Assembly: GCA_029861865.1 (NCBI GenBank)
Contig: JAOTYL010000001.1
Location: 498,536-562,535 of the forward strand
Direction: 5' to 3'
Source of the DNA: Myxococcales bacterium
GTDB lineage: Bacteria; Myxococcota_A; Polyangia; Polyangiales; Houyiibacteriaceae
Length of the DNA: 64,000 nucleotides
Below the pieces are notes generated by a model that was not told the origin of the DNA, did not search any database, and saw only the letters and a list, made by a program, of their open reading frames with translations. The position numbers and the translations under genes are program-made. This document shows, one piece after another, positions 2,198-47,022 of the stretch (the stretch's first letter is position 1; every line of letters starts with the position of its first letter).

Positions 2198-2330
2198 GGG
2201 GCCAGCTGACCTTTTCGAGATGAAGACGCTAGCAATCGGCTCGGGCGCCTGTCAAACGAACGGTTTTCTCCGATTTCCGCTCCCGTCGGAATGTCCGGGC
2301 CCGAGCGCGGCCACTCCGCGGGTTTGTGAT

Positions 2331-2360
2331 TTGGTTTACAGCATATTTTACCGTTATTAT
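2331..2360 (+). promoter_or_regulatory. Candidate sigma70-type promoter (TTGGTT-N18-TATTAT), 7 nt upstream of ATG 2368; leaderless-type
   Basis: Sequence is TTGGTTtacagcatattttaccgtTATTATtggaaccATG. No SD is present, and the AT-rich block is atypical for this genome. Confidence 0.3.
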
Positions 2361-2367
2361 TGGAACC

Positions 2368-4116
2368 ATGTCAGGGCTCGAAAACTTCCTCCACTACCTC
2401 GAAAGAGGGGATGTCAGCGAAATTGTCTTTCAAAGCGGGGCGACCGCCGCGGCCAAGCGAAAAGGCCGGCTTCAGCCGGTTACTCGAGAGCCGCTGACCG
2501 CTCAGCACATTCTCAAGTTGGTCGAACAGACGCCTTTGCAGGACCTCGTCCCCCAGGAGGACGGCGCCAGTGCACCAACAGCGACACATATCAACGGAAA
2601 CAAGTACGTTGCGACTGTCGCTCGCTCAGGACAGATGCTGTTGTTGCGGGTCTGGCTTCCCGACCGCCTGTCGGACCCCGTGCCGGTGGCACCGCCCGAT
2701 CCACAGCTCGAACCCGAGTCGACCAAGGTGCCGATCGGAGCGATGCGTCCCGCCAACGGTCAGTGGACGTCGGCGAGACCCCCCGGGCTTCTGCTCGAGT
2801 CGTCGCAAGCTCCACCAGAGATACGCTCCGCGCCGCCGGCTCCACGCATCCCTTCTCATCGCCCGCCGCCGGTTGCGATCAAGTACCCGAACGCTCGGAG
2901 CGTGATTCCGAGACATTCGTATCGCCCGCCACCCGAAGCCTCCCCGTTGGCCGAGTTCGTGCCGGCGGACGTGCCGGCATCGGCGCCTCCCGCGCTCCGT
3001 AAATTGTTGGTGGAGGCTCGCACTGAATCCGCGAGCGATGTTCACATCATGTCTGGGGAACCGGTGCGCTTTCGATGCAATGGCTCGCTGGTTGCGCGAG
3101 GTGCTCCGTTAGATGACGACGAAGCTCGCTCTCTGCTGGCGCCCTTGCTCAACGAGCGCAATGCGCACCAGTTCGAGGAGCTCGGGTACGCGGACTTCGC
3201 CTGCCAGATCGAGGGCGCTGGTCGCTTTCGAGTAAACGCCAACAAACAGCGGAGTGGAATCAAGGGGTGCTTTCGACTGATCATGAACGAGCCCCCAACC
3301 GTCGAGTCTCTCAGTTTGCCGCAGGAGTTACGGCAGATGCTCGACTACCATCAGGGGCTGGTCGTGGTGTCCGGTCCGAGCGGCGCAGGCAAGACGACGA
3401 CACTCGCGGCACTCGTCGACCTGTTCAATGCGGAACGCTCGGTTCACGTCATTACGGTCGAGGACCCTGTCGAGATCATCCATCCGATCAAGAAGGCGAT
3501 CATCAGCCAGCGTGAGGTCGGTTCACATACCAAGAGCTTCCACGCGGCGCTGAAGGGATCCCTACGCGAGGACCCCGATGTCATCGCCATCGGTGAGCTA
3601 CGGGACTGTGAGACGGTCGAGAAAGCGCTCGAGGCGTCGGAGACGGGGCACTTGGTGTTCGCCACGATGAGCACACCTTCGGGCGCGACCACGATCGACC
3701 GTCTGATCGACATGTTTCCACCCGACGATCAATCCCAGGTGCGTGCAACGCTGGCGGGCGCGCTCAAGTTCGTGGTGAGCCAGCGTCTGGTTCCGAAAAA
3801 GGACGGGCACGGCCGCGTGGTTGCAGTCGAGCTCTTGACCGGAAACATGGCGTTGTGGTCACTCATCCGCGACGACAAGCTGTTTCAGTTGCCGAGCCTC
3901 CTTCAGCGCGGCCGCGCATTTGGGATGATCCGCATCGAAGACTCGCTCAACGAGCTGCTCGCCGCCGGCGTGATCACCGAGGAGGTCGCGAAGGCCTACG
4001 CCGACGATCCCCGGGTCATCGGGGCAGGGGCGCCCGTGCCCCAGCCCACCCCGCAAGATCAAGAACGCGCTCGAAAAGGCACCCGCCGCAACCTGTTTTC
4101 CAGGAAGGACAAGTGA
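2368..4116 (+). CDS. PilT-family (T2SSE) ATPase paralog with an extra degenerate N-domain, a Pro-rich linker and an altered His box
   Basis: Walker A GPSGAGKTTT; Walker B/Asp box EDPDVIAIGELRD; His-box region GHLVFATMSTPSGATTIDRL (Ser where the PilT in this window has His). I prefer ATG 2368 (MSGLENFL...) over the track start at 2326. Confidence 0.85.
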   Translation: MSGLENFLHYLERGDVSEIVFQSGATAAAKRKGRLQPVTREPLTAQHILKLVEQTPLQDLVPQEDGASAPTATHINGNKYVATVARSGQMLLLRVWLPDRLSDPVPVAPPDPQLEPESTKVPIGAMRPANGQWTSARPPGLLLESSQAPPEIRSAPPAPRIPSHRPPPVAIKYPNARSVIPRHSYRPPPEASPLAEFVPADVPASAPPALRKLLVEARTESASDVHIMSGEPVRFRCNGSLVARGAPLDDDEARSLLAPLLNERNAHQFEELGYADFACQIEGAGRFRVNANKQRSGIKGCFRLIMNEPPTVESLSLPQELRQMLDYHQGLVVVSGPSGAGKTTTLAALVDLFNAERSVHVITVEDPVEIIHPIKKAIISQREVGSHTKSFHAALKGSLREDPDVIAIGELRDCETVEKALEASETGHLVFATMSTPSGATTIDRLIDMFPPDDQSQVRATLAGALKFVVSQRLVPKKDGHGRVVAVELLTGNMALWSLIRDDKLFQLPSLLQRGRAFGMIRIEDSLNELLAAGVITEEVAKAYADDPRVIGAGAPVPQPTPQDQERARKGTRRNLFSRKDK

Positions 4117-4119
4117 ATC

Positions 4120-5196
4120 ATGCCAGCGCTCGATCGATACTTTGATGTGCTTCTCGACCGCGATGGGTCCGATCTCCACCTCTCGGTAGGCTATCCACCC
4201 ACGATTCGCGTAAAGGGACAGCTGGTCGCAATCGCGCGTCAGCCGCTGGATCGTCCGACCATCACTCGTCTCATGGACGAGCTGCTGGACCAAGATCGGC
4301 TCGAGTACTTTCACGCGTATCACGATCTCGACTTCGCATACGGCTACGAGGACAAGGCGCGCTTTCGCGCAAACTATCTCTACAAGACGACGGGACCGGG
4401 CGCCGTCTTTCGAACCATTCCGCGCGAGATTCTGACGACCGAGCAGTTGGGCCTGCCCGAGGCCGTCGTAGGCCTCGCGGATAGGAGAGCGGGCTTGGTG
4501 CTCGTAACCGGACCGACGGGTAGCGGAAAGAGTACGACGCTTGCCGCCATGCTCGACTACATCAACCGTAAACGCGAGGGACACATCCTCACGATCGAAG
4601 ATCCAGTCGAGTTCGTGCATCGACCGCGCAAATGCCAGATCACCCACCGCGAGGTCGGAGTGCACACACCGAGCTTCGCCGACGCGATTCGAAGCGCTGG
4701 TCGGGAGAACGCGGACGTCATCCTCGTAGGCGAGCTACGAGGGCGTGAGACCATGAAGATGGCCCTTCAGCTAGCTAGCTTCGGGGTGTTGATCTTCGCG
4801 ACGGTTCACACCAACTCGGCGCCCGCAACGATCGACCGTTTCGTCAACGCCTTCCCGGCAAGTCAACAGCCTCAGATTCGAGGTATGCTCGCAGAATCTC
4901 TGGCGGGTATCGTCGCACAGCAACTCCTAAGGAGAGCGGACGGAAGCGGGCGTATCGCGGCCCAGGAGATCCTCATCGGCACGTCGGGGGTATCCTCTGC
5001 AATTCGCGAGGCCAAGACGACCATGCTGCAAAGCTTGATCCAAAGCGGTGGGAGCTACGGGATGCAGAGCATCGACGCAGTCCTCGCCCGACTGGTCGCC
5101 GAGGGCAAGGTGACCGCACAGGACGCCGTCGAGAAAGCCGCCGACAAGGAGACTTTCGCAAGGATCCCAGCGGTAGCAAAGGCACTCGCGGGCTAA
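4120..5196 (+). CDS. PilT/PilU-family ATPase paralog
   Basis: 358 aa. GSDLHLSVGYPPTIRVKG N-domain, Walker A GPTGSGKSTT, ENADVILVGELRG, His box FATVHTNSAPATIDRF. The ATG lies 3 nt after the previous stop. Confidence 0.85.
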   Translation: MPALDRYFDVLLDRDGSDLHLSVGYPPTIRVKGQLVAIARQPLDRPTITRLMDELLDQDRLEYFHAYHDLDFAYGYEDKARFRANYLYKTTGPGAVFRTIPREILTTEQLGLPEAVVGLADRRAGLVLVTGPTGSGKSTTLAAMLDYINRKREGHILTIEDPVEFVHRPRKCQITHREVGVHTPSFADAIRSAGRENADVILVGELRGRETMKMALQLASFGVLIFATVHTNSAPATIDRFVNAFPASQQPQIRGMLAESLAGIVAQQLLRRADGSGRIAAQEILIGTSGVSSAIREAKTTMLQSLIQSGGSYGMQSIDAVLARLVAEGKVTAQDAVEKAADKETFARIPAVAKALAG

Positions 5197-5269: not shown

Positions 5270-5437
5270 GGTGACCCGGGCTGTGGCGCGCGGCATGTCC
5301 TCGAACGCGAGTTCCGCAGGCGCCGATCCATCACTCCGAGTCATACACTCGAGAGGGAGTCCACAATGCTGCCCAACATCCCCGCCGAGGATGTCTGAGC
5401 GGGCGAGGGCGTGCCGTGCGCCACAGCCCGGGTCACC
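5270..5437. repeat. 168-bp element bounded by 26-bp inverted repeats (25/26 match), in a convergent intergenic region
   Basis: Left arm 5270-5295 is ggtgacccgggctgtggcgcgcggca. The reverse complement of 5412-5437 is ggtgacccgggctgtggcgcacggca. A further 9-bp pairing joins 5295-5303 to 5386-5394. Confidence 0.7.
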
Positions 5438-5449
5438 GGTATCTGACCG

Positions 5450-7285
5450 CTACTTCACGTCGAAGTTGTAGCGCGCGCCCATTCTCGGGGCGCCGAACGG
5501 CGGGAACCGTACGCTGGCGATCTGTTGGCCCATGCACGTTTGAAAACCGGCGCCGCCTCCCCGTACCGTGGCGCCTAGAACCGAGCCGTTGCCTGCGATT
5601 GCAAGGTCGACTTTCACGTTGCCGAGCTGAGTGCCGCTCTTGACCTCGGGGATCACGCACTTGCTATAGAAGCGGTTGAGGTTGCGATTCATCACGCTGG
5701 CGACCTGGGCGCCGGTGAGCCGACCCTCTCCGCCGCCTTGTGAGGCGTCTCCGATTTCAACCGCCCGGCTCATCGCCTCGTCGTAACTCGCGAACCCGCC
5801 CTGGCTCCGCGGAGCGGCGGCGGAGCCGGAGCCCCTCCTACGGCGCCGAATAGGTCGATCCGGCAGCAGGCCCGCCTCGCCGGTCGGGATGTCCCCGAGC
5901 TTGAAAAGGTCGTCGAGCTCGGTCGAAGACGCCTCCCGGACGTCACTCGAGCGCGACATCAAGAAGCCGCCGACCGACAGCGCGATGACCCCGACGAGAG
6001 AAGCGGCAATCAGCCATTTCGCGGCCGCCGAGCGCTTCTCCGATCTCCGTGCGTGGACCCGTGCGGCGTGGGCTGCCGCCACCTCGTCTTGATGCTCCCG
6101 TTGCAGGATGAACTCGCGGAACTCCGGCCACTCGCGGAGAGGCCTTCGTTCGTTGCTATCCGTGTTGAGCGTCGGGTCGTCTCCCGAAAACCCACCGACG
6201 TTCAGTCGCTCGATGAGCTCGCGCGCGTTGAATGGCCCGTGGTCCATCTTGTCGCGGGCCACCATCCAACGCTGCTTCGTATCCGACGAGAGCTCCTCCA
6301 GGATGGTCTTGAGGTCCGGTCTTGGTGGCGGCGGCGGAGCCAATGGCGCTTGCGGAAGAAGCGAAAACACAGGGATGTCGATGTCCGGTGGTGGCAAGAC
6401 GGAGCTGAGATCGATGTCGAGAGTCACCCCTTCCGAGGGCGGCGGCGGCATCGAGTTGGCCACCTGTACGAAAGGCGTCAGCGCAGTACGCACGGCTTCG
6501 GGCGAGTCGAAGCGGTCTTTCGGGTCGTGCGCGAGGCACCGGAACAGAATGCCGTCCAGCTCGGGCGGGATGTCTTGTCGCAGGTGTGACGGCGCGACAA
6601 ACCCCTTGCCCGGCGAGCGCGTCGTCAGCAGCTCGTAGAGAATCGCGCCAACGCCGAAGACATCGCTCCGAGCCGTCGCTGGTTTGCCTTCTTTGACCTC
6701 TGGGGCGAGGCACGCTTGGTCGCTATCTTGGAACGCGCTCGGACCCACCGCCTCGAGGAGAACCTGTCCGACGCCAAAGTCGCGCACCTTCACTTGGCCC
6801 TCACGCGTGACCCACACCGCGCTCGGGCGAAGGGTTCCATGCGGGCCTTTGTCGTGCGCGTAGCTCAGCGCGCTACACAGATGCGCGACGACGTTGTAAA
6901 TCCCGCGCAGCGAAAGAGGCTCATCTTGGCGGTCGCGTTCCTGGATGAACTCGGACAGCGGAGTCCCGTCGATCCACTCTCCCGCGATGAAGTGCTCTCC
7001 CTTTTCCGTGCAGCCCACACCGAACATCTTGGCGATGTTGTTATGGGATAGGGCGGCCGCCATCCGGCATGCCTCCCGAAAATCAGAAGCGGCTTGCGGT
7101 GGCACTAGGTCCGGCCGAAGCACGTGGACGAGAATGTCTCGCTTGGTCTGGCGATCCTTCGCCGACCACACCACGGCCTGCGGGTCTTCGTCGACCCGAT
7201 CGACGACCTCGAACCTTCCCCCTACCACGGCTCCCGGCTGTAAACCCGAGAGCTCGGGCGCTGTCGATGCGATCCCCTCAGGCAT
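5450..7285 (-). CDS. Hanks-type pseudokinase with GYF-like region, TM helix and AgmX/PglI-like (TonB-C-like) C-terminal domain
   Basis: The kinase fold is recognisable (DFG, APE, DPKDRF). The Gly loop is absent (VDEDPQA), the beta3 Lys is replaced (ILVHVL), and HRDLKPxN reads PHGTLRPSAV. TM helix WLIAASLVGVIALSVGGFLM. Tail: FYSKCV...GNVKVDLAIAGNGSV...FQTCM...VRFPPF. Confidence 0.8.
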   Translation of the reverse strand: MPEGIASTAPELSGLQPGAVVGGRFEVVDRVDEDPQAVVWSAKDRQTKRDILVHVLRPDLVPPQAASDFREACRMAAALSHNNIAKMFGVGCTEKGEHFIAGEWIDGTPLSEFIQERDRQDEPLSLRGIYNVVAHLCSALSYAHDKGPHGTLRPSAVWVTREGQVKVRDFGVGQVLLEAVGPSAFQDSDQACLAPEVKEGKPATARSDVFGVGAILYELLTTRSPGKGFVAPSHLRQDIPPELDGILFRCLAHDPKDRFDSPEAVRTALTPFVQVANSMPPPPSEGVTLDIDLSSVLPPPDIDIPVFSLLPQAPLAPPPPPRPDLKTILEELSSDTKQRWMVARDKMDHGPFNARELIERLNVGGFSGDDPTLNTDSNERRPLREWPEFREFILQREHQDEVAAAHAARVHARRSEKRSAAAKWLIAASLVGVIALSVGGFLMSRSSDVREASSTELDDLFKLGDIPTGEAGLLPDRPIRRRRRGSGSAAAPRSQGGFASYDEAMSRAVEIGDASQGGGEGRLTGAQVASVMNRNLNRFYSKCVIPEVKSGTQLGNVKVDLAIAGNGSVLGATVRGGGAGFQTCMGQQIASVRFPPFGAPRMGARYNFDVK

Positions 7286-7321: not shown

Positions 7322-8998
7322 TCAACTTCGCGGGGCCGCTCCCTCATTTTCGGCGAGCTCGACACTGAGCTCTCGCTCGCGCAAAACCGCACCGGCCATC
7401 GAGTCGATGATCTCCTTTGCCCGCGCCTCTGGCACGTCGACCAACGAGTGCGTGTTGCGCACCCGTATGCGGCCGATTTCTCTACGTTTCAGGCCGGTGC
7501 GTTCTTGCAGCAAGCGCCCCAACTCCGAGGCCTTCAAGTCGTCGCTCTTGCCCACGTTGACATACAGCGTCGCCGTCGGCGGTGCCTTGGCCTCGGTGAC
7601 CCCCTCATCTGAGTCCTTCGGGGGCTTGGGCGGTGTCGTCGCTCGTCGGCCGCGTCGCCGCTGTTTGGCCGCGACTTCGTCGATCTCTTCACTGCCCGAA
7701 CCGAAAAACGCACCGAGAAGCCCCGCAAGCATTCGCTCTGCGTCTGGATGTGTGATGAGACGACGCGCCAGGGCAAGCGATCGTTCGTCGGGCGGATTTG
7801 GATAGGCGAGGTCGATCATCGCAATTCGATCGGCTTCCCGTCGCGTCTTCGCCTCGCCCGCGCTCGGTAGCGTCCGCTCGACCGGTAGGATTCCGTACTG
7901 GAGCCGCAGATAGTAGAGAATCCCTAGCTCGTTGGGGCCGACCAGTGAGATTGCGGTGCCCGTGCGTCCGGCACGCCCCGTGCGGCCGGTGCGGTGAACG
8001 TACTGCTCCACGTTCTCGGGCAAGTGGAAGTTGATCACGTGGGTAAGATGAGATACGTCGATTCCGCGTGCCGCCACGTCGGTGGCGACCAAGAATCGGA
8101 CCTCGTTTCGCCGGGTTTGCGCGAGCACCTTCTCCCTCTCTCGCTGCGGGCGGTCGCCGTTCAACCATTCGGCATTGAACCCAGCCCGCTTCAACGCTGC
8201 GGAGACCTCCTCCGTCTCCGCCTTGGTGTTACAGAAGATCAATGCGCTTTCCGGGTTTTCGATCTCCAAAATCGAGATCAGGTTCCCGACACGTCCCATC
8301 CCGCTGAGCATGTAAACGAAATGCTCGATCCCCAACGCTCCAACGTGATCGCCAGACAGCCCGAGGAAAATCGGGTCGCGCATGTGCCTTTCGGCCACAC
8401 GCTTGATCGCGCGGTCGACCGTCGCCGAAAAAAGTAGGGTTTGGCGATTGCTCGGAAGCCTTTCGATGATCGCGTTGAGCTCCTTGGCGAACCCCATCGA
8501 CAGCATTTCGTCTGCCTCGTCGAGCACCAACACGCGAAGGCGGGAAGCCGTGATGGTGCCGCGCTTGAGGTGATCCAGCACGCGGCCAGGGGTCCCGCTG
8601 ATGACCCGCGCGCCCTTCTTGAGTGCGCTCACTTGGCGTTCCATCGAAGCGCCCCCGTAAACGGCGACGGTGTCGATGCTGCGGTGCGCCCCGAGCTTCT
8701 CAATCTCGCGTGCGCTTTGGAGCGCCAACTCACGTGTTGGAGCAAGAACGAGCGCCTGCTCATCCCCGTCGATCGACATGAGTTTGTCGACGAGCGGGAT
8801 CCCAAACGCGCCGGTCTTTCCCGTTCCGGTGCGAGCCTGGACGATGACGTCGTTTCCGTCGACGATCATTGAGTAGGAATCACGTTGAACCGGAGTAGGC
8901 GTTTCCCAGCCGAGGTCGCCCAAAGCTTTGAGCACGTCGTCATGCAAGCCAAGGTCTTCGAAGGTCTGGGGGTCGTCCGCGGCGGGCGCCTCGTTCAT
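7322..8998 (-). CDS. DEAD-box ATP-dependent RNA helicase with DbpA-like C-terminal RNA-binding domain
   Basis: Q motif TPTPVQ, AQTGTGKT-like ARTGTGKTGAF, DEADEM, SAT, HRTGRTGRAG. I chose start ATG 8998 (MNEAPAADD...FEDLGL), which overlaps the upstream stop (ATGA). Confidence 0.9.
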   Translation of the reverse strand: MNEAPAADDPQTFEDLGLHDDVLKALGDLGWETPTPVQRDSYSMIVDGNDVIVQARTGTGKTGAFGIPLVDKLMSIDGDEQALVLAPTRELALQSAREIEKLGAHRSIDTVAVYGGASMERQVSALKKGARVISGTPGRVLDHLKRGTITASRLRVLVLDEADEMLSMGFAKELNAIIERLPSNRQTLLFSATVDRAIKRVAERHMRDPIFLGLSGDHVGALGIEHFVYMLSGMGRVGNLISILEIENPESALIFCNTKAETEEVSAALKRAGFNAEWLNGDRPQREREKVLAQTRRNEVRFLVATDVAARGIDVSHLTHVINFHLPENVEQYVHRTGRTGRAGRTGTAISLVGPNELGILYYLRLQYGILPVERTLPSAGEAKTRREADRIAMIDLAYPNPPDERSLALARRLITHPDAERMLAGLLGAFFGSGSEEIDEVAAKQRRRGRRATTPPKPPKDSDEGVTEAKAPPTATLYVNVGKSDDLKASELGRLLQERTGLKRREIGRIRVRNTHSLVDVPEARAKEIIDSMAGAVLRERELSVELAENEGAAPRS

Positions 8999-9438
8999 GG
9001 AGCGGGTTCCGTTTCGTTGGTGGGTGTCGAGCCCAGGATCTCCGCCACTTGGTTCGCAAGCGGAGCGTCCTCGCGCATGTATCGTTGAAGGTTGAGCTCG
9101 ACTCGATGGCGGTACTTGTTGAGGAGGTGCACTTTGTCTTCGTCGCATCGATTGCGGAGCGCGTTTAGGCGGAGGTCCCAGGCTTCGAGCTTCTCCCGAA
9201 GTGCGGCCGCATCGACGACATTACTCGAAAGGTAGTCGAGGCGCACTTGGTCGACCTCTTCGTGGAGGATTCGGAGACCGTCGGCGCAATTCGCGTCGAA
9301 GCTGTCGTCGGTTTCAGGCCAGAACACCTGCGGAATGACGGACGCGAAGCCTACGACGACCAGATAGGAGAACGCGATCGCGTAGATGCCTATCACAAAC
9401 CTGCGGCCGAAACGGCCCCGCTCTTCTCTTGGCGGCAA
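8995..9438 (-). CDS. Hypothetical N-terminally anchored membrane protein
   Basis: 147-aa ORF with TM helix FVIGIYAIAFSYLVVVGFASVI. High-GC third positions. Translationally coupled to the helicase. Confidence 0.5.
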   Translation of the reverse strand: MPPREERGRFGRRFVIGIYAIAFSYLVVVGFASVIPQVFWPETDDSFDANCADGLRILHEEVDQVRLDYLSSNVVDAAALREKLEAWDLRLNALRNRCDEDKVHLLNKYRHRVELNLQRYMREDAPLANQVAEILGSTPTNETEPAP

Positions 9439-13018: not shown

Positions 13019-15460
13019 TTACGGGCTCGGCTGGACGCTTCCGCTTTCGCCCTTTTCAGGACGCGGGTCGGCGAGGTCTAGCTTTAGCGCATCCGGATCA
13101 AGGAGTGCGTTGGCGAGAACGGCGTCCATCTTGGAGACCGGCACGAACTCGAGCGTCTCGCGAACCTCCTCCGGGACCTCCTCGAGGTCGGCGGTGTTTC
13201 TCTCCGGAAGAATGACCCGCTTGATGCCCGCGCGGTGTGCGGCAAGGACCTTCTCCTTGACCCCACCCACGGGAAGCACGCGGCCGCGCAAGGTGATCTC
13301 GCCCGTCATGGCGACATCGTGCCGCACGTGGATCCCCGTTAGCAGAGACACGATCGCGGTCATCATGGTCACGCCGGCGCTCGGCCCGTCTTTCGGCATT
13401 GCACCTGCGGGAATGTGGATGTGGATGTCGCTCGTCTCGAGGAAGTCCTCCGCAATGCCAAACGCCTTTGCACGCGTACGCACGTAGCTCATGGCCGTCT
13501 GTGCTGACTCTTTCATGACGTCGCCCAGCTGGCCGGTCAGCTGAAGCTTGCCTGTGCCGTGCATCTTCGTGCATTCGATGAAGAGGATCTCCCCGCCGAC
13601 GGCGGTCCAAGCGAGCCCTGTCGCCACCCCTGTTTCGGTGGTGCGTTCGGCGACTTCCGAGGTGAACCTCGCCGGCCCTAGGTAGGGCCGGAGCGATTCT
13701 TCGTCCGAAACCGTCCAGGGGCCCTCTTCGCCTTCGGCCACCTTCACTGCGACGCCGCGAATGACACTCGCGATTTGGCGTTCGAGGTTACGGACCCCGG
13801 CTTCACGGGTGTAGTGGTCAATGATCGACTCGATCGCTGGATCTTCGAGGGTGACGGTCGCCGCTTCGATGCCGTGCTCCCGCAGCTGCTTGGGCACGAG
13901 ATGCACGCGCGCGATATCGAGCTTTTCTCGCCGGGTGTAGCCGGGAATTTCGATGATCTCCATCCTGTCCTTGAGAGGAGCTGGAATGGTGTCGCCGACA
14001 TTGGCAGTGGCGATGAACATGACCTTCGATAGATCGTATGGAATCTCGAGGTAGTGATCGCTAAACGTGTCGTTCTGCTCGGGGTCTAGGACCTCGAGTA
14101 GGGCCGCAGCGGGATCACCGCGGAAGTCGTGTCCGATCTTGTCGATTTCGTCGAGCATGAACACGGGGTTGATCCGGGTGGCCTTCTTCATCCCTTGAAT
14201 GATCTGGCCAGGAAGGGCGCCGACATAGGTCCGACGGTGACCGCGGATCGCGGCCTCGTCGTGCACACCGCCCAGGCTGATACGGTGAAACTTCCGCCCG
14301 AGGGCACGCGCGACCGAGCGGCCAAGAGAGGTCTTACCGACACCGGGCGGCCCGATGAGGCACAGGATCGGCCCTTTCTTGTCGGTCTTGAGCTTCCGGA
14401 CGGCAAGGTATTCGACGATTCGCTTCTTGACCTTCTGAAGGCCCGAGTGGTCTTCATCGAGGACCTTGCGAACCGCCGCGATGTCCATGTTGTCGGTGGT
14501 CTGCTTCGTCCACGGAATATCGAGAATCCAGTCGATATAGGTGCGGACCACGGTGTACTCGGCTGACCCGACCTGCATCTGCCGAAGGCGCTTGAGTTGC
14601 TTTCGCGAGACTTTGTCAGCCTCGCTCGGCATGTCCGCCTTGGTGATGCGCTCTTCGAGGACGTCGAGATCGCCTTGGTCGCCTTCCTCTTCACCGAGCT
14701 CTTCTTTGATCGCCTTCAGCTGCTGGCGGAGCACGTACTCCCGCTGGTTCTTGCCCATCTCCTCTTTGATCTGAGAGTTGATGCGCTCGCGCATTTTGAG
14801 GATCTCGAGCTGGCGGGTGAGGAGCCGTAGAACTTTGCGAATTCGTTCTTTCGGGTCGAGCGTTTCGAGGAGCTGCGATTTTTCGTCGACCGGAGCGTCG
14901 AGATTGGCTGCCACGAGATCGGCGAGCTGGCCTCGCTCTTGGATCGAGTCGATCAGAGACCCCGCCTCTCGCGGGAGCTCTGGCATGAGCTGGATCACCT
15001 GTTTGGCGATGTCCCGAAGGCTCATTGCCAGCGCTTCACTCTCGACATCCTCAGCCGGGACCTCCGGGAGGCGCGTCACCCGTGCCTTGATGTAGGGCTC
15101 CTTGGTGACCACCTGTTCGAGGCGAATCCGGACGAGACCTTGCAGAATCAGGCTGTAGTTGCCCGAGCTGTGCTTGAGCGCCTTGAGAACACGGGCAGCC
15201 ACGCCCACCGGGTAAAGATCGTCTTGACCGGGGTCATCGGTGGAGGGGTCCCGCTGCGCGACGATCGCGATGATGGGCTGATCGAGGTTTTCGATGTCCT
15301 CGACCAGCGCCACGGACTTCTCGCGGCCGACGTCAAAAGGCGCCACGGCCGCCGGAAAAAGAACCGCGTTGCGGATCGGCAAAACGGGGAGCTCGTCACC
15401 GAACTCGATTTCTCCAGTATCGGGAGGCGGCATCGATGTGATGGTTTCGTCGTCGCTCAT
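13019..15460 (-). CDS. lon: ATP-dependent Lon protease
   Basis: 813 aa. LON N-domain, AAA+ Walker [10 protein letters not shown], and the protease motif [11 protein letters not shown] containing the catalytic Ser. Confidence 0.95.
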
Positions 15461-15700: not shown

Positions 15701-16654
15701 CTAAAGGCAGACGCGATTGCGACCCGTGCGCTTGGCCTCGAAGAGCTTTTCGTCGGCAGCTTTGAAAACATCCTCGGCTTCTTCGTAGTGTGCTTGCCAT
15801 TCGGCGACGCCCACGCTGACCGTGACCTCGACGCGTGTCCCCTCGAACTCGAATCGAGTGTCCCGAACGAGTCGGTTGATCTTCCCTGCGAGCTCGCCGG
15901 CGCCTTCGAGATTGACCTCTGGAGTGATCAGCGCAAACTCCTCGCCACCGATCCGTGCGATCACGTCGTTTAGACGCAGGCGTCCGAGGGTCACCGCGCC
16001 GAGCTGCCTGAGAATGGCATCGCCCGCCAAGTGGCCGAATTTGTCATTGATGCGCTTGAAGTGGTCGATGTCGAACATCAGGAGCGAGAATGTGCGCTTG
16101 TAGCGCTTAGCTCGCGCAACTTCTTTGTCGAGCATTTCGTCGAAGTACCGCTTGTTGTGCAGCTGGGTGAGGCCATCGGTTGTCATCAACCGATAAATCT
16201 CTTCGTGGTACTGCACCTCGATGTCGTCCCCGACGATGAACTTCATGATGGTGCGACCCACTTTCAGCTGGTCGCCGTGTCGAAGCCGGCCCTCGTCTTC
16301 GACGATGTCATCGTTCACGTAGGTGCCGTTGGTCGACTCGAGGTCCCGAACGCGGAACTCGCCGTCGTGGAACCGGATCTGGCAATGTTTGCGAGAGATG
16401 CTCTCCTGGTCGATCGGAATTTCGCAATTCGGGGAGCGCCCGATGATCAAGGGTTCAGTGCTGACCTGGACGCGACGCCCGATATCTTGGCCGTAGATGA
16501 CGATCAACAATCCGCTGTCGCTCGTCTTCTTTGAAGCGCGAGCAGCAGTTGCCTCGGTCAGGACCGTCTGGCTCGGGTTGGTCGTCTGATCCTTGAACTG
16601 CACTCCTCCACTATACCGCGGCGCGGCAGCGGGCGTTAAATCCAGGGCCTTCAT
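15701..16654 (-). CDS. FHA-domain diguanylate cyclase (FHA-GGDEF)
   Basis: FHA: LIIGRSPNCEIPIDQESISRKHCQI...STNGTYVN. GGDEF: active site GGEEF with an RLND I-site at canonical spacing. Start moved to ATG 16654 (MKALDL...) so the gene does not run across the divergent gene. Confidence 0.85.
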   Translation of the reverse strand: MKALDLTPAAAPRYSGGVQFKDQTTNPSQTVLTEATAARASKKTSDSGLLIVIYGQDIGRRVQVSTEPLIIGRSPNCEIPIDQESISRKHCQIRFHDGEFRVRDLESTNGTYVNDDIVEDEGRLRHGDQLKVGRTIMKFIVGDDIEVQYHEEIYRLMTTDGLTQLHNKRYFDEMLDKEVARAKRYKRTFSLLMFDIDHFKRINDKFGHLAGDAILRQLGAVTLGRLRLNDVIARIGGEEFALITPEVNLEGAGELAGKINRLVRDTRFEFEGTRVEVTVSVGVAEWQAHYEEAEDVFKAADEKLFEAKRTGRNRVCL

Positions 16655-16726
16655 TTCAGTGAGAACGGACTCCCGGAGGAGTTGGGTTTGTTGACCCCGG
16701 GTGGGGGGGTCTCTTAGCGTAAGTGC

Positions 16727-17926
16727 GTGCGCGACTTCGTTTCTCACCCCTGGCTCTGGGGATTGGGCATCCTCGCCGTCATTTTGGGCACCCCACTGGC
16801 GTTGCTTGCGAGCCCCCCTTCGGCTCACCGAACCTCGACCCAGCTAGCCAACGCGGTGACCCCGCCCTTCGCGGACGTCGACGTTGAGCGAGCGCGACCG
16901 ATGGGAAAGCAACTGGTGGTCCCAAGGCGTGACGGAACGCGGGCGGTGCTCACGGTCGACTCCGACTTACAGACGTACATCCAGGATCTCTTTCGCAAGT
17001 ACGATGTGCCTGCCGGAGGGCTGGTCGCGATCGAGCCGCGCACCGGACGCGTGCTCGCGTACGTGGGGTACGAGGCAGGGAAGGGTGAGAGCATGGACGT
17101 CGTTACCGACCCAGCGCCACCGGCGGCTTCGATCTTCAAGATCATCACCGCCTCTGCACTCCTCGACGCTGGCGTGAAATCGTCGACCTCGGTTTGCTAT
17201 GGCGGCGGAATGCGCAGCCTCGGCTCGGCCGACCTCGTCGACAGCCCTAAGCGTGACCGCTGGTGCGCGACTCTTGCCGACGCGCTCGGGTACTCGATCA
17301 ACGCCATTTTCGCGAAGCTTGCAGACCGACACCTCAACGAAGCGCGGATGACTCGGTACGTATCGGCGTTCGGGTTCGGTCAACGCTTGCCATTCGATTT
17401 GCCAACGGCGCCGAGCCCTGCAGATGTGCCCCAGAGCCGGTTAGAACGCGCCCGGATGGCGGCTGGTTTTTGGCACAGCCAGCTCTCGCCGCTCCACGGG
17501 GCCTTGCTGGCCTCGACGATCGCGAACGACGGGGGCATGCCCTACGCGGCCATCGTCGCTCGAATCGAAAGCTCGAGCGGAAAGACTCTCTACCAACACT
17601 CGCCACAGAAGTTCCGCCAAGTCGTCCCACGCATGACCGCCAGGGAGGCAGGCGAAATGATGACGCGTACGGTCACGCACGGAACCGCAAAGAAGGCCTT
17701 CTGGGACTCGAAAGGGCGACCCTTCCTTCCCGGCATCGCCGTTGCCGGCAAGACCGGTACGCTGAGCCGAAACAATCCGTATCGCCGATACACATGGTGG
17801 GTCGGGTACGCCCCCGTCGACGATCCAAAGATCGCCGTCGCGAGCCTGGTGGTGAACGAACCCAAGTGGCGCATCAAGGCAAGCTACGTGGCACGAGAAG
17901 CGCTCCGGGAATACCTGGTCAAGTAG
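16727..17926 (+). CDS. Penicillin-binding protein, transpeptidase-domain family (short, N-terminal anchor)
   Basis: SxxK (ASIFK), SxN (YSIN) and KTGT motifs. N-terminal hydrophobic helix. GTG start. Confidence 0.8.
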   Translation: MRDFVSHPWLWGLGILAVILGTPLALLASPPSAHRTSTQLANAVTPPFADVDVERARPMGKQLVVPRRDGTRAVLTVDSDLQTYIQDLFRKYDVPAGGLVAIEPRTGRVLAYVGYEAGKGESMDVVTDPAPPAASIFKIITASALLDAGVKSSTSVCYGGGMRSLGSADLVDSPKRDRWCATLADALGYSINAIFAKLADRHLNEARMTRYVSAFGFGQRLPFDLPTAPSPADVPQSRLERARMAAGFWHSQLSPLHGALLASTIANDGGMPYAAIVARIESSSGKTLYQHSPQKFRQVVPRMTAREAGEMMTRTVTHGTAKKAFWDSKGRPFLPGIAVAGKTGTLSRNNPYRRYTWWVGYAPVDDPKIAVASLVVNEPKWRIKASYVAREALREYLVK

Positions 17927-43254: not shown

Positions 43255-44048
43255 GTGATTACCTCTCCGAGATCCTAGCTCGAACCCGTCGCGAGAACCT
43301 GCGACGCCGAAAGCACGTCAAGGCGATGCGGCCGCTCGTGCGAGAGCCCCAGCCAGAGCGCTCGGAACGCGGCATCGCAGCGCTTCGTCGCGCGGCTGGT
43401 GGGCCTCCATCCGTCATCGCAGAGGTCAAGTTTCGAAGCCCGAGCGCAGGTGCCATTCGAAGGTGGGCTCCAGGGGAAGGGGTCCGTGTCGCTCGTGCCT
43501 ACGAACGCGGCGGCGCGTCCGTCATCAGCGTCCTTGCGGATGCGCCCGACTTCGGTGGGTCTCCGCTGCTCGTAAGACGAATCTCGGAGTCGGTCTCGGT
43601 CCCGGTGCTTTTCAAAGGCTTCGTCATCGACCCCGTTCAGGTGGACTTGGCTTTCGATGTTGGCGCCTCGCTCGTCTTGCTGCTGGTTCGTGCGCTCGGC
43701 GACAAAGCGCTCCAGTCTTTAATCGCCCATGTCCGCGCGCTCGGCATGGAACCGGTCCTCGAAGCAGCGAACGATGAGGAAGTCGACCGAGCCGTTGCGT
43801 CGAGCGTGACCGTCATCGGGGTCAACGCCAGGGATCTACAGACCTTCCAGGTCGACTTGCCCATGGCTCACCAGTGTGTGGCGCGGATTCCCCCAGATCG
43901 CGTTGCCGTGTTCATGAGCGGGGTGCGCACCAGCGACGACTTCCGGCAGGTCGCTCAGGGCCGCGCCGATGCCGTGCTGATCGGCGAGAGCCTCATGCGG
44001 GCCGAGGATCCCGGTGTTCGTCTGTCTGAGCTCTTGCGCTCAGCCTGA
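43251..44048 (+). CDS. trpC: Indole-3-glycerol phosphate synthase
   Basis: VIAEVKFRSPSAG, ISVLAD, IGVNARDL, GESLMR. The ATG at 43251 overlaps the trpD stop (ATGA). Confidence 0.92.
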   Translation: MSDYLSEILARTRRENLRRRKHVKAMRPLVREPQPERSERGIAALRRAAGGPPSVIAEVKFRSPSAGAIRRWAPGEGVRVARAYERGGASVISVLADAPDFGGSPLLVRRISESVSVPVLFKGFVIDPVQVDLAFDVGASLVLLLVRALGDKALQSLIAHVRALGMEPVLEAANDEEVDRAVASSVTVIGVNARDLQTFQVDLPMAHQCVARIPPDRVAVFMSGVRTSDDFRQVAQGRADAVLIGESLMRAEDPGVRLSELLRSA

Positions 44049-45708
44049 TGGTTTCGTGCTCCAGCGGCAGTGTAACCCGAAAACAAGTGCCCGGGCCTGG
44101 ACGGTCCACGATCTCGATCCGCGCCTTGTGCTGGTCGACGACTTGCTTCACGAGCGCTAGTCCGAGCCCAACACCGTGGCTCCGCCCCGAATAAAACATG
44201 TCGAAGAGTCGCCCTCGCTGTGCATCGTCGATCCCGCGACCTTCGTCGGCTACCTCTAAAAACGCCCGACCCGAATCGTCACGACCGGCGCGCACCTCGA
44301 CCGTCCCGCGGTGGGGTGATGCTTGGACCGCGTTTTTCACCAAGTTCCACACGACTTGCCGCAGCCTATCGGGATCAACCGTAGCAATGATCGGTTCTTC
44401 GGGGAGTCGCTCTTCGATGCACAAGCCGTTGCTCTGAGTCGCTTCACCGCGCGCGACGACCACGACGTCACTGACGAGAGTACGTAGGTCCTGGGGCTCC
44501 GTGTGAATCTGGCTCGGACGACCGACCTGCAGCATCTTGGTGACCAGTGCGTCCAGCCGATCGACTTCCGAGATCACGATCCCCAGCAAGCGTCGGTCCT
44601 CGGGGCCGAGCGCGTTTCCTTCGCGTACTATGTCCACCGATCCCGAAATCGAGCTGAGGGGGTTTCTAATTTCGTGTGCGAGCCCAGTGGCGAGCTGCCC
44701 GAGGACCGCGAGCCGTTGCGCCTGCTCGGCTTGTTCCTTGAGGTCCTTAATTTCGGTCAGGTCTTGGAACACGAGCAGCAGCCCCGACGAGTTGCCTTCG
44801 GCGTCGACCAGCGCGCTCATCATGTACCCCATCGGGAATTCGGTGCCGTCGGCGCGCCTCCCAGGCGCTTCCGCGCGCCTCGGGGGCTCGCTCGCTCTCT
44901 TCTTTTCGTAGCCTGGCAGCACGACCGACAATGGCCGACTCACGAGCGTGCCGGCACCGTCGCGAAGAATGTCGCGAGCTGCGCGGTTGATGCCAATGAT
45001 GCGCCCTTCCTCGTCAGCGGTGATGAGCCCCGAGGCGATCGAGCGAACGATGTCGTCGTTGAGCCTGGCAAGACGCGCGGCGCTTTGCTCTGCCTCTATG
45101 AGTTGCGCGCCGACCATTTGGACTCGTCGGGCGAGGTTGGTCGCAAGGAGCGCGACCGCCGAGATGCCCACCATGTTCCACAGGAGCGCAAAGATGAAGT
45201 CTTTCGAGTCCAGGATGTACTGGCTCAAGGGCTGGTCAGGCGGCGGCGGTAACCAGCCGACGTTGAGTGCAAGGCCCTGAAGGAGGTAGCAAGCCAGGCA
45301 GGTTGCCGCTGTGATGTAAGCCGCGTTTGCACCGAGGGTGAGCGCCGCAGTCAGGATCTCAGCGCCGTACAGAAACGAAAAAATGCTCCCCGCTCCTCCG
45401 GTGAGGTAGACCAACCCGGTGATCAGAAGCACGTCGAGGCCGGTGACCGCCATGGCGACGGCATGCTCCTGCCGCCCGCGCAGCAACCAAACCCCGAAGA
45501 GAATCGACGACCCGTAGATTATCGAAATTAGGATCAGCAAGAAGGTTGGCGTGAACTGGCCATACCGTATGGCATCCAGCGCCAGATACATCGTTGTGCC
45601 GAGGAGAATTGTCGCGATGAACAAGCGACCCCCGAGGACCCACTGAACCCGTCTGTGCGGGTGGGGTTCCTCGCGCTCACCGGTCGACCTGTGCGGTGGC
45701 TGGATCAC
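43993..45708 (-). CDS. PilS-like sensor histidine kinase (polytopic N-terminus, PAS, HisKA, HATPase)
   Basis: About 6 N-terminal TM helices. H box LAHEIRNPLSSISGS; N box NLVKNAVQA; DEGRGI; GLGLALV. GTG start overlaps the pilC stop (GTGA). The 3' end overlaps trpC by 56 nt. Confidence 0.85.
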   Translation of the reverse strand: MIQPPHRSTGEREEPHPHRRVQWVLGGRLFIATILLGTTMYLALDAIRYGQFTPTFLLILISIIYGSSILFGVWLLRGRQEHAVAMAVTGLDVLLITGLVYLTGGAGSIFSFLYGAEILTAALTLGANAAYITAATCLACYLLQGLALNVGWLPPPPDQPLSQYILDSKDFIFALLWNMVGISAVALLATNLARRVQMVGAQLIEAEQSAARLARLNDDIVRSIASGLITADEEGRIIGINRAARDILRDGAGTLVSRPLSVVLPGYEKKRASEPPRRAEAPGRRADGTEFPMGYMMSALVDAEGNSSGLLLVFQDLTEIKDLKEQAEQAQRLAVLGQLATGLAHEIRNPLSSISGSVDIVREGNALGPEDRRLLGIVISEVDRLDALVTKMLQVGRPSQIHTEPQDLRTLVSDVVVVARGEATQSNGLCIEERLPEEPIIATVDPDRLRQVVWNLVKNAVQASPHRGTVEVRAGRDDSGRAFLEVADEGRGIDDAQRGRLFDMFYSGRSHGVGLGLALVKQVVDQHKARIEIVDRPGPGTCFRVTLPLEHETIRLSARAQTDEHRDPRPA

Positions 45709-46916
45709 TCAGCGTTTACTTTACCCGCGATCGAGAAGATCGGCAGGTACATCGCGATCAGGATGGTGCCCACGATTCCTCCGATGAAAACCATCATCAG
45801 GGGCTCGAGCAGCGAGGTGAGGGCTGCGACCGCAACGTCGACCTCGTCCTCGTAGAAGTCTGCGATCTTGTTGAGCATAGTATCGAGCGCGCCGGTCTGC
45901 TCACCGACGCCGATCATCTGCACGACCATTGGCGGAAACACGTTGGTCTCCATGAGCGGCTCGGCCATGGTCCGGCCCTCGCGGATCTTGTTCGACGTCA
46001 CCTGGATTGCGGCCTCCACAACCACATTGCCCGCCGACTTCTTCACGACATCGAGCGAATCGAGGATGGGAACGCCCGCTGAGAGCAGCGTTCCCAGGGT
46101 CCGCGTGAACCGGGCGACCGAAATCTTCCGTATTACCGGGCCCATGATGGGCATGATGAGCAAGGTCCTGTGGAAGAAGTGTTTGCCCGCCGGCTGCCTG
46201 TAGACCCACGTGACGCCAAACACGATCGCCCCAACGCCCAGGATGATCCAAACGATGTTGCTCAGGAAGCCTTCGGAGGCGGAAATCACCAACTGCGTCA
46301 GCGCAGGAAGCGAGTCTTCACCCCCAAACTCCGCGAACATGCCCTTGAAGCTCGGAATGACCCACGCCAGCATCACGACTACGACGATGACTGCGACCAA
46401 GAAGATCGCAATCGGGTAGACCATCGCCCCGCGAACCTGCCGGGCGAGCTTGACCCGCTTCTCGATGTAGAGCGCTAGACGGTTGAGAATCGTATCCAGG
46501 ATACCGCCCATCTCACCGGCGCGTACGAGGTTGACGAACAGCTCATCGAACAGCTTTGGGTGGCGAGCCAAACCCTCGGAGAACGTTCCACCTTGCTCGA
46601 CGTAGTCTTTGACGTCTTTGAGGATCGTATTGAGATTCTTGTTCTCGCCTCGGCTCGACAGGATGTCCAAGCACTGGACCAACGGAAGGCCGGCGTCGAT
46701 CATCGTCGCGAACTGGCGCGTGAAGATGACGAGCTCCTTCGGGGTGACACCGGTGCCGAGGGAGAGCTTGAGCGCTCGGCCCTTCTTTTTGATCTTCACC
46801 GGGTTCAACTGGCGCGCGCGCAGCCGTGTCTGCACGGCTTCCTTGCTGTCCGCCTCGATGATCCCGGTCTGAACCTCACCCGCGCGAGTGCGCGCTTCGT
46901 ATACCCACTCGGCCAT
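45705..46916 (-). CDS. pilC: Type IV pilus platform protein PilC (GspF family)
   Basis: 403 aa with two T2SSF repeats (FTRQFATMIDAGLPL... and FTRTLGTLLSAGVPIL...) and a conserved VGEQTGALD motif. Confidence 0.92.
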   Translation of the reverse strand: MAEWVYEARTRAGEVQTGIIEADSKEAVQTRLRARQLNPVKIKKKGRALKLSLGTGVTPKELVIFTRQFATMIDAGLPLVQCLDILSSRGENKNLNTILKDVKDYVEQGGTFSEGLARHPKLFDELFVNLVRAGEMGGILDTILNRLALYIEKRVKLARQVRGAMVYPIAIFLVAVIVVVVMLAWVIPSFKGMFAEFGGEDSLPALTQLVISASEGFLSNIVWIILGVGAIVFGVTWVYRQPAGKHFFHRTLLIMPIMGPVIRKISVARFTRTLGTLLSAGVPILDSLDVVKKSAGNVVVEAAIQVTSNKIREGRTMAEPLMETNVFPPMVVQMIGVGEQTGALDTMLNKIADFYEDEVDVAVAALTSLLEPLMMVFIGGIVGTILIAMYLPIFSIAGKVNAE

Positions 46917-46951
46917 GTAATCTCCGCCCGATCCCCAGCGGGCCTCTCAAA

Positions 46952-46981
46952 ATCCTAGCCGATCAGTGATCACGGGGTCAA
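46952..46981 (-). promoter_or_regulatory. Candidate sigma70-type promoter for pilC (TTGACC-N18-TAGGAT) with an embedded GTGATCAC palindrome
   Basis: Minus strand reads ctttTTGACCccgtgatcactgatcggcTAGGATtttgagagg...ggcggagattacATG. Confidence 0.3.
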
Positions 46982-47022
46982 AAGCCGAGCGCAATTCCGC
47001 TCTGACTGGCATCCCCTAGGGC

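Follow-up and report, generated by a model that had tools for sequence, protein, structure and literature searches.

A predicted bitopic pseudokinase with a GYF domain and a two-cysteine TonB-C-like tail in Myxococcota

In a 64,000-nucleotide stretch of a Myxococcales bacterium genome (GenBank assembly GCA_029861865.1, contig JAOTYL010000001.1; the whole stretch is referred to here as the window), we identified a 611-codon open reading frame (ORF) with an ATG start at 5450–7285 on the minus strand, supported by the ORF list and its translation. It codes for a degenerate Hanks-type kinase domain and, after it, a proline-rich linker, a GYF domain, a single transmembrane (TM) helix, a periplasmic linker, and a two-Cys tail (Table 1). 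The protein is most aptly seen as known parts in a new combination, with a dead Hanks-kinase head on a GYF-TM-tail chassis like that of GltJ. Because the head is placed in the cytoplasm and the tail in the periplasm, a non-catalytic transmembrane adaptor is the natural reading, and we propose, with a probability of about 0.6, that this is a bitopic inner-membrane adaptor that lacks kinase activity and links the cytoplasm and the envelope.

A search of a large protein collection found 843 relatives of the window pseudokinase. The best 120 are full-length, share 72–99% identity with it, and come from metagenomes or metagenome-assembled genomes labelled Myxococcota, Myxococcales, or Polyangiales; together with the window protein, these 120 orthologs make up the close-clade set of 121 sequences used below. 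When the C-terminal half was used as a profile in an exhaustive search, it matched 410 clusters at 50% identity (E ≤1e-3; 220 at E ≤1e-10), the majority of them ~600-residue proteins with an identical layout, and we take the family to comprise at least 410 such clusters. The carriers are uncultured Myxococcota genomes in all named sources except the cultured Labilithrix luteola, and the public annotations encountered for family members read 'serine/threonine protein kinase', one 'hypothetical protein' aside.

All domains of the gene are under purifying selection. Scanning one genome per species gave 65 loci (L001–L065), and pairwise Nei-Gojobori comparisons with the three closest (L001, L002, and L004) yield ratios of nonsynonymous to synonymous substitution rates (dN/dS) of 0.10–0.13 for the whole coding sequence, 0.07–0.16 for the kinase domain, 0.08–0.12 for the GYF domain, 0.07–0.10 for the periplasmic linker, and ~0.06 for the C-terminal domain. 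A decaying gene is rejected because dN/dS is ~0.1 throughout. Other candidate assignments were also set aside: an anti-sigma-factor reading rested on an insignificant NF052375 match over the TM region (E 0.052), and stray Pfam matches were treated as noise (Cob_adeno_trans, E 0.006; VirB8, Rv1476, and DUF5305 in single relatives).

The degenerate kinase domain

An earlier, sequence-only reading of this DNA had recognized a Hanks fold with four lost catalytic elements, and both parts of that claim hold. Pfam Pkinase (PF00069) matches residues 37–265 of the window protein at 66.5 bits (cut-off 31.7), and the closest solved relative by sequence is the kinase domain of Mycobacterium tuberculosis PknB (E 7e-27). 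In the alignment with PknB, the Gly-rich loop LGFGGMSEV stands opposite VDRVDEDPQAV, which contains no Gly and no GxGxxG pattern; the beta3 segment VAVKVL stands opposite ILVHVL, with the Lys of active kinases replaced by His (His54); and the catalytic loop HRDVKPAN stands opposite HGTLRPSA, in which Thr replaces the catalytic Asp and Ala the Asn. The DFG (VRDFGVG) and APE (LAPEV) motifs are retained. The second Hanks kinase in the window (47023–48618, minus strand), which had been offered as an active comparator, is indeed of the active type and keeps SGGMASVY, VAIKVL, HRDVSPHN, and DFG.

The motif losses are fixed in the 120 orthologs and are therefore not sequencing errors. The Gly-loop positions read D-E-D-P-Q-A in these orthologs, and the catalytic Asn position is Val, Ile, or Ala; across the 121 close-clade sequences, 106 have Arg and 11 have His at beta3, and each of the three H-G-T positions is conserved in 118 to 121. 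The Mg-binding Asp is present, with D169-F-G found in 120 of the 121. In the window clade, the exchange of the Gly-rich loop for an acidic stretch would argue against nucleotide binding.

The same pattern extends well beyond the close clade. Among 88 diverse full-length members, reaching down to ~20% identity, almost all of those with an aligned catalytic loop read H-G-x or H-A-x and none reads HRD, for which reason the dead-kinase state is, as judged from these alignments, ancestral to the family. No member of this set carries the catalytic Asn, Arg predominates at the beta3 position, and DFG has frequently degenerated. The catalytic Asp position varies freely (T, A, G, M, L, S, and others), which leaves no conserved substitute for the catalytic base. 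Loss goes further in a sub-clade that includes Labilithrix luteola, which has lost the N-lobe, HGT, and DFG and retains only a C-lobe remnant; its homolog aligns with the window protein only from residue 124 onward (BLASTP E 1e-35) and has no Pfam Pkinase match. The GYF segment, TM helix, and two-Cys tail are nonetheless kept in this sub-clade, and ATP chemistry thus cannot be the conserved function of the family. The public label 'serine/threonine protein kinase' is almost certainly wrong as an enzymatic function.

Linkers, GYF domain, membrane helix, and tail

The cytoplasmic linker that follows the kinase domain is 61 residues long and 28% Pro, and a run of at least three prolines is found in the linker of 120 of the 121 close-clade sequences. 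The motif IDLxSVLPPPDIDIP is seen in the listed orthologs and is recognizable in the Labilithrix homolog. An acidic, Pro-containing form of it, (I/V)D(L/V)xxS(V/L)(L/M)PPxD, is kept from the window clade to Labilithrix, and it may serve for docking or as an intramolecular ligand of the GYF domain.

The sequence-only reading had also pointed to a GYF-like segment after the Pro-rich spacer, and this was substantiated through relatives, profile, and fold despite a GYF_2 score below the cut-off in the window protein itself. The segment WMVARDKMDHGPFNARELIERLNVGGFSGDD (residues 340–370) aligns with the full Pfam GYF_2 profile (PF14237; positions 1–50 of 50) at E 0.029, and of 79 diverse relatives 16 have a GYF_2 match at E ≤0.01 (the best at 4.1e-6). 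A profile built from 53 family GYF segments has as its top match among PDB sequences 7z3c_A (E 0.06), the 85-residue construct of 'Adventurous gliding motility protein X' (GltJ), and hhalign of the family profile against this construct gives 91.3% probability (E 9.7e-7, 59 columns). An AlphaFold2 (AF2) model of residues 332–402, with a mean predicted local distance difference test score (pLDDT) of 89.4, adopts a beta-beta-alpha-beta-beta arrangement plus a C-terminal helix; its top Foldseek match in the PDB is again 7z3c (E 1.8e-3, probability 1.00, root-mean-square deviation [rmsd] 2.2 Å over 56 columns, 25% identity), followed by the GYF domains of GIGYF2, GIGYF1, and Smy2. On this family, profile, and modelled-fold evidence we consider the segment confirmed as a true GYF domain. 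The GYF domain of GltJ binds a proline-rich sequence of AglZ, and bacterial GYF proteins mostly pair the domain with a membrane module (PMC11135422).

The predicted TM helix is likewise upheld as a single helix and is the sole hydrophobic peak in the protein (mean Kyte-Doolittle hydropathy 2.32 over 19 residues). Its N-terminal flank is 27% Arg plus Lys, and this basic flank of a lone helix indicates an N-in/C-out topology. The periplasmic linker that follows has ~65 residues, is 6% Pro, and contains a strictly conserved LDDLFKLGDIPTGEAGLLPD motif and a basic patch.

The sequence-only reading had assigned the tail to the AgmX/PglI C-terminal family, and this was right in kind. Its two cysteines, C543 and C584, are invariant across the diverse family; the name of the NCBIfam AgmX/PglI C-terminal domain model NF033768, 'myxo_SS_tail', is only suggestive of a Cys pair as a trait of that family. 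The model aligns with the window protein over profile positions 4–89 of 92 at E 9.5e-4, below its curated cut-off, and matches 69 of the 79 diverse relatives at E ≤0.01 (best 1.7e-11); in ten relatives checked singly, scores range from 29.6 to 40.9 bits and one passes the cut-off of 40. The GltJ model NF033761 matches 29 of the 79 relatives and the GltG model NF033760 matches 27, and in the ten members inspected these matches involve no more than the final ~90 residues on either side of the alignment. Of the three profile searches by which the sequence-only reading was to be checked, Pkinase is therefore above its cut-off in the window protein, and GYF_2 and NF033768 are below theirs there and matched in relatives.

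An AF2 model of residues 500–611 (pLDDT 91.4) has an alpha-alpha-beta-beta-alpha-beta order, and its best 22 PDB fold matches are all C-terminal domains of TolA, TonB, HasB, or FusB; their E values are modest (≥0.017), with probabilities of up to 0.97, and the match to 6i97_D has an rmsd of 2.2 Å over 63 columns. The top PDB sequence match of the tail family profile is the TonB homolog 7zc8 (E 0.069). Pfam TonB_C has no match in the window protein and matches only 1 of the 79 relatives; this, together with a TM helix that has no His and a Pro-poor periplasmic linker, sets the tail apart from canonical TonB/TolA, and on profile and model evidence it is a divergent TonB-C-fold domain of the myxobacterial AgmX/PglI branch.

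Table 1. Features of the pseudokinase gene and two neighbouring features, in window coordinates
Feature	Position	Strand	Basis
Whole pseudokinase coding sequence, 611 aa	5450..7285	-	Pseudokinase, Pro-rich linker, GYF, TM helix, periplasmic linker, TonB-C-like tail
Degenerate Hanks-type kinase domain, aa ~21-270	6476..7225	-	Pfam Pkinase, PknB alignment, motif conservation
Proline-rich cytoplasmic linker, aa 271-331	6293..6475	-	Composition; conserved motif; PPPPP run just before GYF
GYF domain, aa 332-402	6080..6292	-	AF2 model, Foldseek, hhalign, Pfam GYF_2 in relatives
Single TM helix, aa 424-444, WLIAASLVGVIALSVGGFLMS, N-in/C-out	5954..6016	-	Hydrophobicity and basic N-terminal flank
Periplasmic linker, aa 445-510	5756..5953	-	Invariant alignment columns; motif LDDLFKLGDIPTGEAGLLPD; basic RRRRRG patch
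Two-Cys TonB/TolA C-terminal-domain-like domain, AgmX/PglI type, aa 511-611	5453..5755	-	NF033768, AF2, fold hits, Cys pair
DEAD-box RNA helicase, DbpA-type C-terminal RNA-binding domain	7322..9148	-	Pfam DEAD, Helicase_C, DbpA
PilT-family pair (context only)	2326..5196	+	TIGR01420, 393 and 409 bits

Genomic neighbourhood

Read along its own direction of transcription, the pseudokinase gene is preceded by genes for Lon (13019–15460), GpsA, a histidine kinase, an OmpR-type regulator, and the DEAD-box helicase, and is followed by PilT/PilU, a long PilT paralog, a gene of unknown function (1423–2235), and PyrF. Next to Lon, at 15701–16828 (minus strand), lies a gene for an FHA-GGDEF fusion, a diguanylate cyclase joined to a phospho-Thr-binding domain and another reader of Ser/Thr signalling.

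The helicase gene is the most recurrent neighbour and a possible operon partner. It lies directly upstream on the same strand, across a 36-bp gap with no terminator-like site on the coding strand, and it is present upstream in 44 of 44 close loci (close loci being the 50 at ≥58% identity) and in 14 of 14 distant or intermediate loci with sufficient upstream sequence. Outside the window clade, it is upstream in all 13 loci of the Labilithrix/Polyangiaceae clade, which have 25–35% identity and no other window neighbour in common, as well as in L067 and L069. One homolog that lies downstream of a DEAD-box helicase gene is that of Labilithrix luteola DSM 27648 (L058 9236–10813; NZ_CP012333, ~10,126,361–10,127,938); the ORFs downstream of this homolog were judged by eye from their translations to code for methyltransferase/NUDIX, Ku, and LigD-like proteins. 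These data would be in keeping with a pseudokinase coupled to the helicase, for example as its inner-membrane tether or regulator in a two-gene operon. However, the helicase gene is absent upstream in L066, L068, and L070–L073, by-eye inspection of the helicase revealed no clear conserved Pro-rich ligand for the GYF domain, and gene order in related genomes can be inherited without a functional link; we regard such coupling as tentative and on balance unlikely, if the best placed of the alternatives.

Other neighbours belong to particular sub-clades. In L067–L071, which represent sister clades at 36–48% identity, a gene for a YscJ/FliF-family (PF01514) lipoprotein is found downstream of the pseudokinase gene, directly in L067 (2575–3081), L068 (3141–3905, with a 4-bp overlap), L069 (10206–11072), and L070 (8848–9618), and at a distance of ~2 kb in L071 (11047–11847). 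There is no such gene in the window or in L001–L065, and the lipoprotein is a candidate periplasmic partner in the sister clades. In a sub-clade at ~28% identity, a DUF4332 (HHH-like) gene is directly upstream (L066 735–1214; L073 358–840) and, in L073, abuts the start codon.

As the sequence-only reading had noted, the pseudokinase gene converges on the PilT-family pair, across a gap of 253 bp. The long paralog (2326–4116, plus strand) is 596 residues from a GTG at 2326, with a Met at residue 15 as a possible true start, and has an extra N-terminal ~100 residues, a Pro-rich linker of ~110 residues with a PPGL motif, and a complete PilT core; the second gene (4120–5196, plus strand) codes for a 358-residue PilT/PilU. 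Much of the convergent gap is filled by a 39-nt inverted repeat (5270–5308 and 5399–5437, 87% complementary, with a 90-nt spacer). The 20-mer core of this repeat has no other copy within the window, and Rfam has no match anywhere in the window, the repeat included; candidate identities are a bidirectional terminator, a long hairpin, and a small mobile element.

The PilT pair is downstream in 32 of 33 close loci; the lone exception, L048, has a 100-N assembly gap just past the TM-coding region. This adjacency is uninformative, since an entire ~15-kb block, mostly of housekeeping and signalling genes, is collinear in the close clade. One contig in this comparison, L002 (CAXMND010000174.1), is labelled 'uncultured Coxiellaceae bacterium' and is collinear over 11 kb with the Myxococcota block of the window at 81–94% protein identity; it is probably mis-binned or mislabelled. 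In one close genome, a 3.2-kb insertion (L039 10874–14057) separates the pseudokinase gene from the PilT pair and carries two unrelated ORFs of 340 and 328 residues, the second repeat-rich by eye, for which searches returned no identity. The locus L069 is syntenic at 38% identity and keeps GpsA, the histidine kinase, the response regulator, the DEAD helicase, the target gene, a gene for a 253-residue protein of unknown function, and pyrF; the place taken in the window by the PilT pair is occupied there by the YscJ/FliF-like lipoprotein gene and one for glutamate dehydrogenase. Among more distant loci, the 14 whose downstream sequence extends for at least 2.5 kb have no PilT-like gene by tblastn, and none is listed in the called-gene tables of L070–L073. 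Linkage to the PilT pair is limited to the window's own clade, and nothing ties the pseudokinase specifically to it.

The sequence-only reading had envisaged a transmembrane scaffold that works with these ATPases. The scaffold part stands on topology and domains; the PilT partnership does not, given L069, the distant loci, and L070–L073, and the conserved linkage to the ATPase pair that it had looked for is absent outside the window clade. In its most concrete form, the partnership would have the GYF domain recruit the Pro-rich linker of the long paralog and so tie type IV pilus-type ATPases to the envelope. The adjacency within the close clade and the PPGL-containing linker are in keeping with this, as GYF domains bind Pro-rich sequences (PMC11135422), but the genes are convergent and therefore not co-transcribed, the collinear block deprives their adjacency of meaning, unrelated genes intervene in L039, L069 has other genes in place of the pair, and relatives outside the clade have no PilT-like gene nearby; we consider it improbable. 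Farther away, at 43993–48618 (minus strand), genes for a PilS-like histidine kinase (6TM_PilS, PAS, HisKA), a PilC-type T2SSF protein, and the active Hanks kinase stand side by side, which places type IV pilus genes ~40 kb from the PilT pair rather than adjoining it.

Proposed role and comparison with known systems

In the adaptor model, a structurally intact, catalytically dead Hanks-kinase head, the Pro-rich linker, and the GYF domain would face the cytoplasm, where the pseudokinase surface and the binding of a Pro-rich ligand by the GYF domain may together recruit a cytoplasmic assembly. Beyond the TM helix and the ~65-residue linker, the disulfide-type two-Cys domain would dock on a periplasmic or outer-membrane partner, and the protein would thereby physically couple the cytoplasmic assembly to its envelope partner. 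Several observations weigh against this model or parts of it. The DFG motif and a Glu in the alphaC region are kept in the window clade, leaving nucleotide binding formally possible; the window protein scores 14.6 bits against a cut-off of 25.8 for GYF_2, and 19.2 bits against the curated cut-off of 40 for NF033768; and the neighbours vary by sub-clade (DEAD helicase, YscJ/FliF lipoprotein, DUF4332, ABC transporter), with no universal partner and no single system. The TM helix, read from the sequence, also has no His and hence no TonB/TolA SHLS-type motif. Without this His, coupling to a proton-driven motor is unsupported, and energization by a motor of the TolQR/ExbBD/AglRQS type is possible by analogy, unsupported by the present findings.

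A more ambitious version of the adaptor model would make the family a new class of envelope-spanning adaptors in Polyangia. Here the dead kinase would be a regulated docking or allosteric module, paired with an active Hanks kinase or read by FHA proteins, that sets whether the GYF domain is free or holds the protein's own Pro-rich motif, so that a GltJ/TolA-like periplasmic connection would be turned on and off by Ser/Thr-kinase signalling; the DEAD helicase might be the client in some clades, and RNA remodelling would then take place at the membrane. We offer this as speculation with rather slim odds.

Two further alternatives fare worse. The protein could be a true TonB or TolA paralog that transduces energy to outer-membrane transporters or Tol-Pal and has extra cytoplasmic domains, given that the best fold matches of its tail are TonB and TolA C-terminal domains and that its bitopic N-in topology is identical to theirs. 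TonB_C is found in only one of 79 relatives, however, the helix has no His-containing SHLS-type motif, the short, 6%-Pro periplasmic linker is unlike a TonB spacer, the Cys pair and the affinity to NF033768 group the tail with AgmX/PglI, and there is no exbBD, tolQR, or TonB-dependent receptor gene among the neighbours examined, all of which leaves this alternative quite improbable. That the protein is an atypical yet active kinase with displaced WNK/CASK-like residues and an envelope sensor domain controlling phosphorylation is highly improbable: DFG and APE are conserved in the clade, the beta3 Arg or His could in principle contact phosphates, and public annotations read Ser/Thr protein kinase, but four catalytic elements are lost together, the acidic D-E-D-P-Q stretch replaces the Gly-rich loop, the catalytic-base position is unconserved, DFG decays in many relatives, and one clade lacks the whole N-lobe.

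As an adaptor without kinase activity, the protein would be a rare bacterial membrane pseudokinase scaffold. We found no publication on the pseudokinase-GYF-TonB-C architecture, on a bacterial GYF-pseudokinase, or on such a pseudokinase in myxobacteria. The family is large and mis-annotated; its parts are individually known and its function is inferred. Experiments are feasible because there is a cultured carrier, Labilithrix luteola DSM 27648. In the gliding machine of Myxococcus, GltG and GltJ connect the cytoplasmic platform with the envelope, and the present family shows the GYF-TM-tail chassis beyond glt loci, fused to a dead kinase; it could reveal re-use of one chassis with different cytoplasmic readers, namely FHA, zinc-ribbon (ZnR), and pseudokinase modules.

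GltJ has a ZnR-GYF head, a TM helix, and a TonB-C tail, and GltG has an FHA-TM-TonB-C organization (PMC11135422, PMC11761067). GltG is a bitopic inner-membrane protein in which the FHA module is followed by the TM helix, a long linker, and the tail, and its TM helix contacts AglR, for which two-hybrid evidence is cited and a structure prediction given (PMC11761067). Our comparison with GltJ (AgmX) of M. xanthus used the 85-residue GYF construct of 7z3c and the NCBIfam GltJ and GltG profiles. The C-terminal two-thirds share the order of GYF domain, single TM helix, flexible periplasmic linker, and two-Cys TonB-C-like tail, and the GltJ GYF structure 7z3c is the best match of the window GYF domain in both fold and profile. 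GltJ differs in its N-terminal part, a zinc-ribbon plus an MglA-binding linker in place of the pseudokinase of the window protein, and in strands 3 and 4 of its GYF domain it retains Trp residues that are missing from the pseudokinase family. The equivalog cut-off of NF033761 is 450 bits, and the best family member checked singly reaches 41 bits, over the tail only. The neighbours examined include no glt or agl genes. A GltJ ortholog is ruled out by the missing ZnR, the missing glt context, and a score far below the equivalog cut-off.

GltG resembles the window protein in being bitopic, with a cytoplasmic module related to Ser/Thr phosphorylation, a TM helix, and a tail of the same family, but it carries an FHA head rather than a kinase fold and has no GYF domain. 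With TonB and TolA the window protein has in common the tail fold and the N-in bitopic topology, and it differs from them by the absence of an SHLS-type TM motif and of a Pro-rich periplasmic spacer, by its Cys pair, and by its large cytoplasmic domains. Outside the myxobacteria, the closest functional analogy is the membrane pseudokinase MviN (MurJ) of M. tuberculosis, in which a Hanks-fold domain without catalytic residues, in a membrane protein with an extracytoplasmic domain, is a docking platform in Ser/Thr-kinase signalling; MviN differs from the window protein in its membrane part, extracytoplasmic domain, and lineage, and has no GYF domain. By analogy, the window protein would be a third design, with a pseudokinase-GYF head, beside GltG with its FHA head and GltJ with its ZnR-GYF head; in all three, one common chassis carries a module for protein recognition on its cytoplasmic side.

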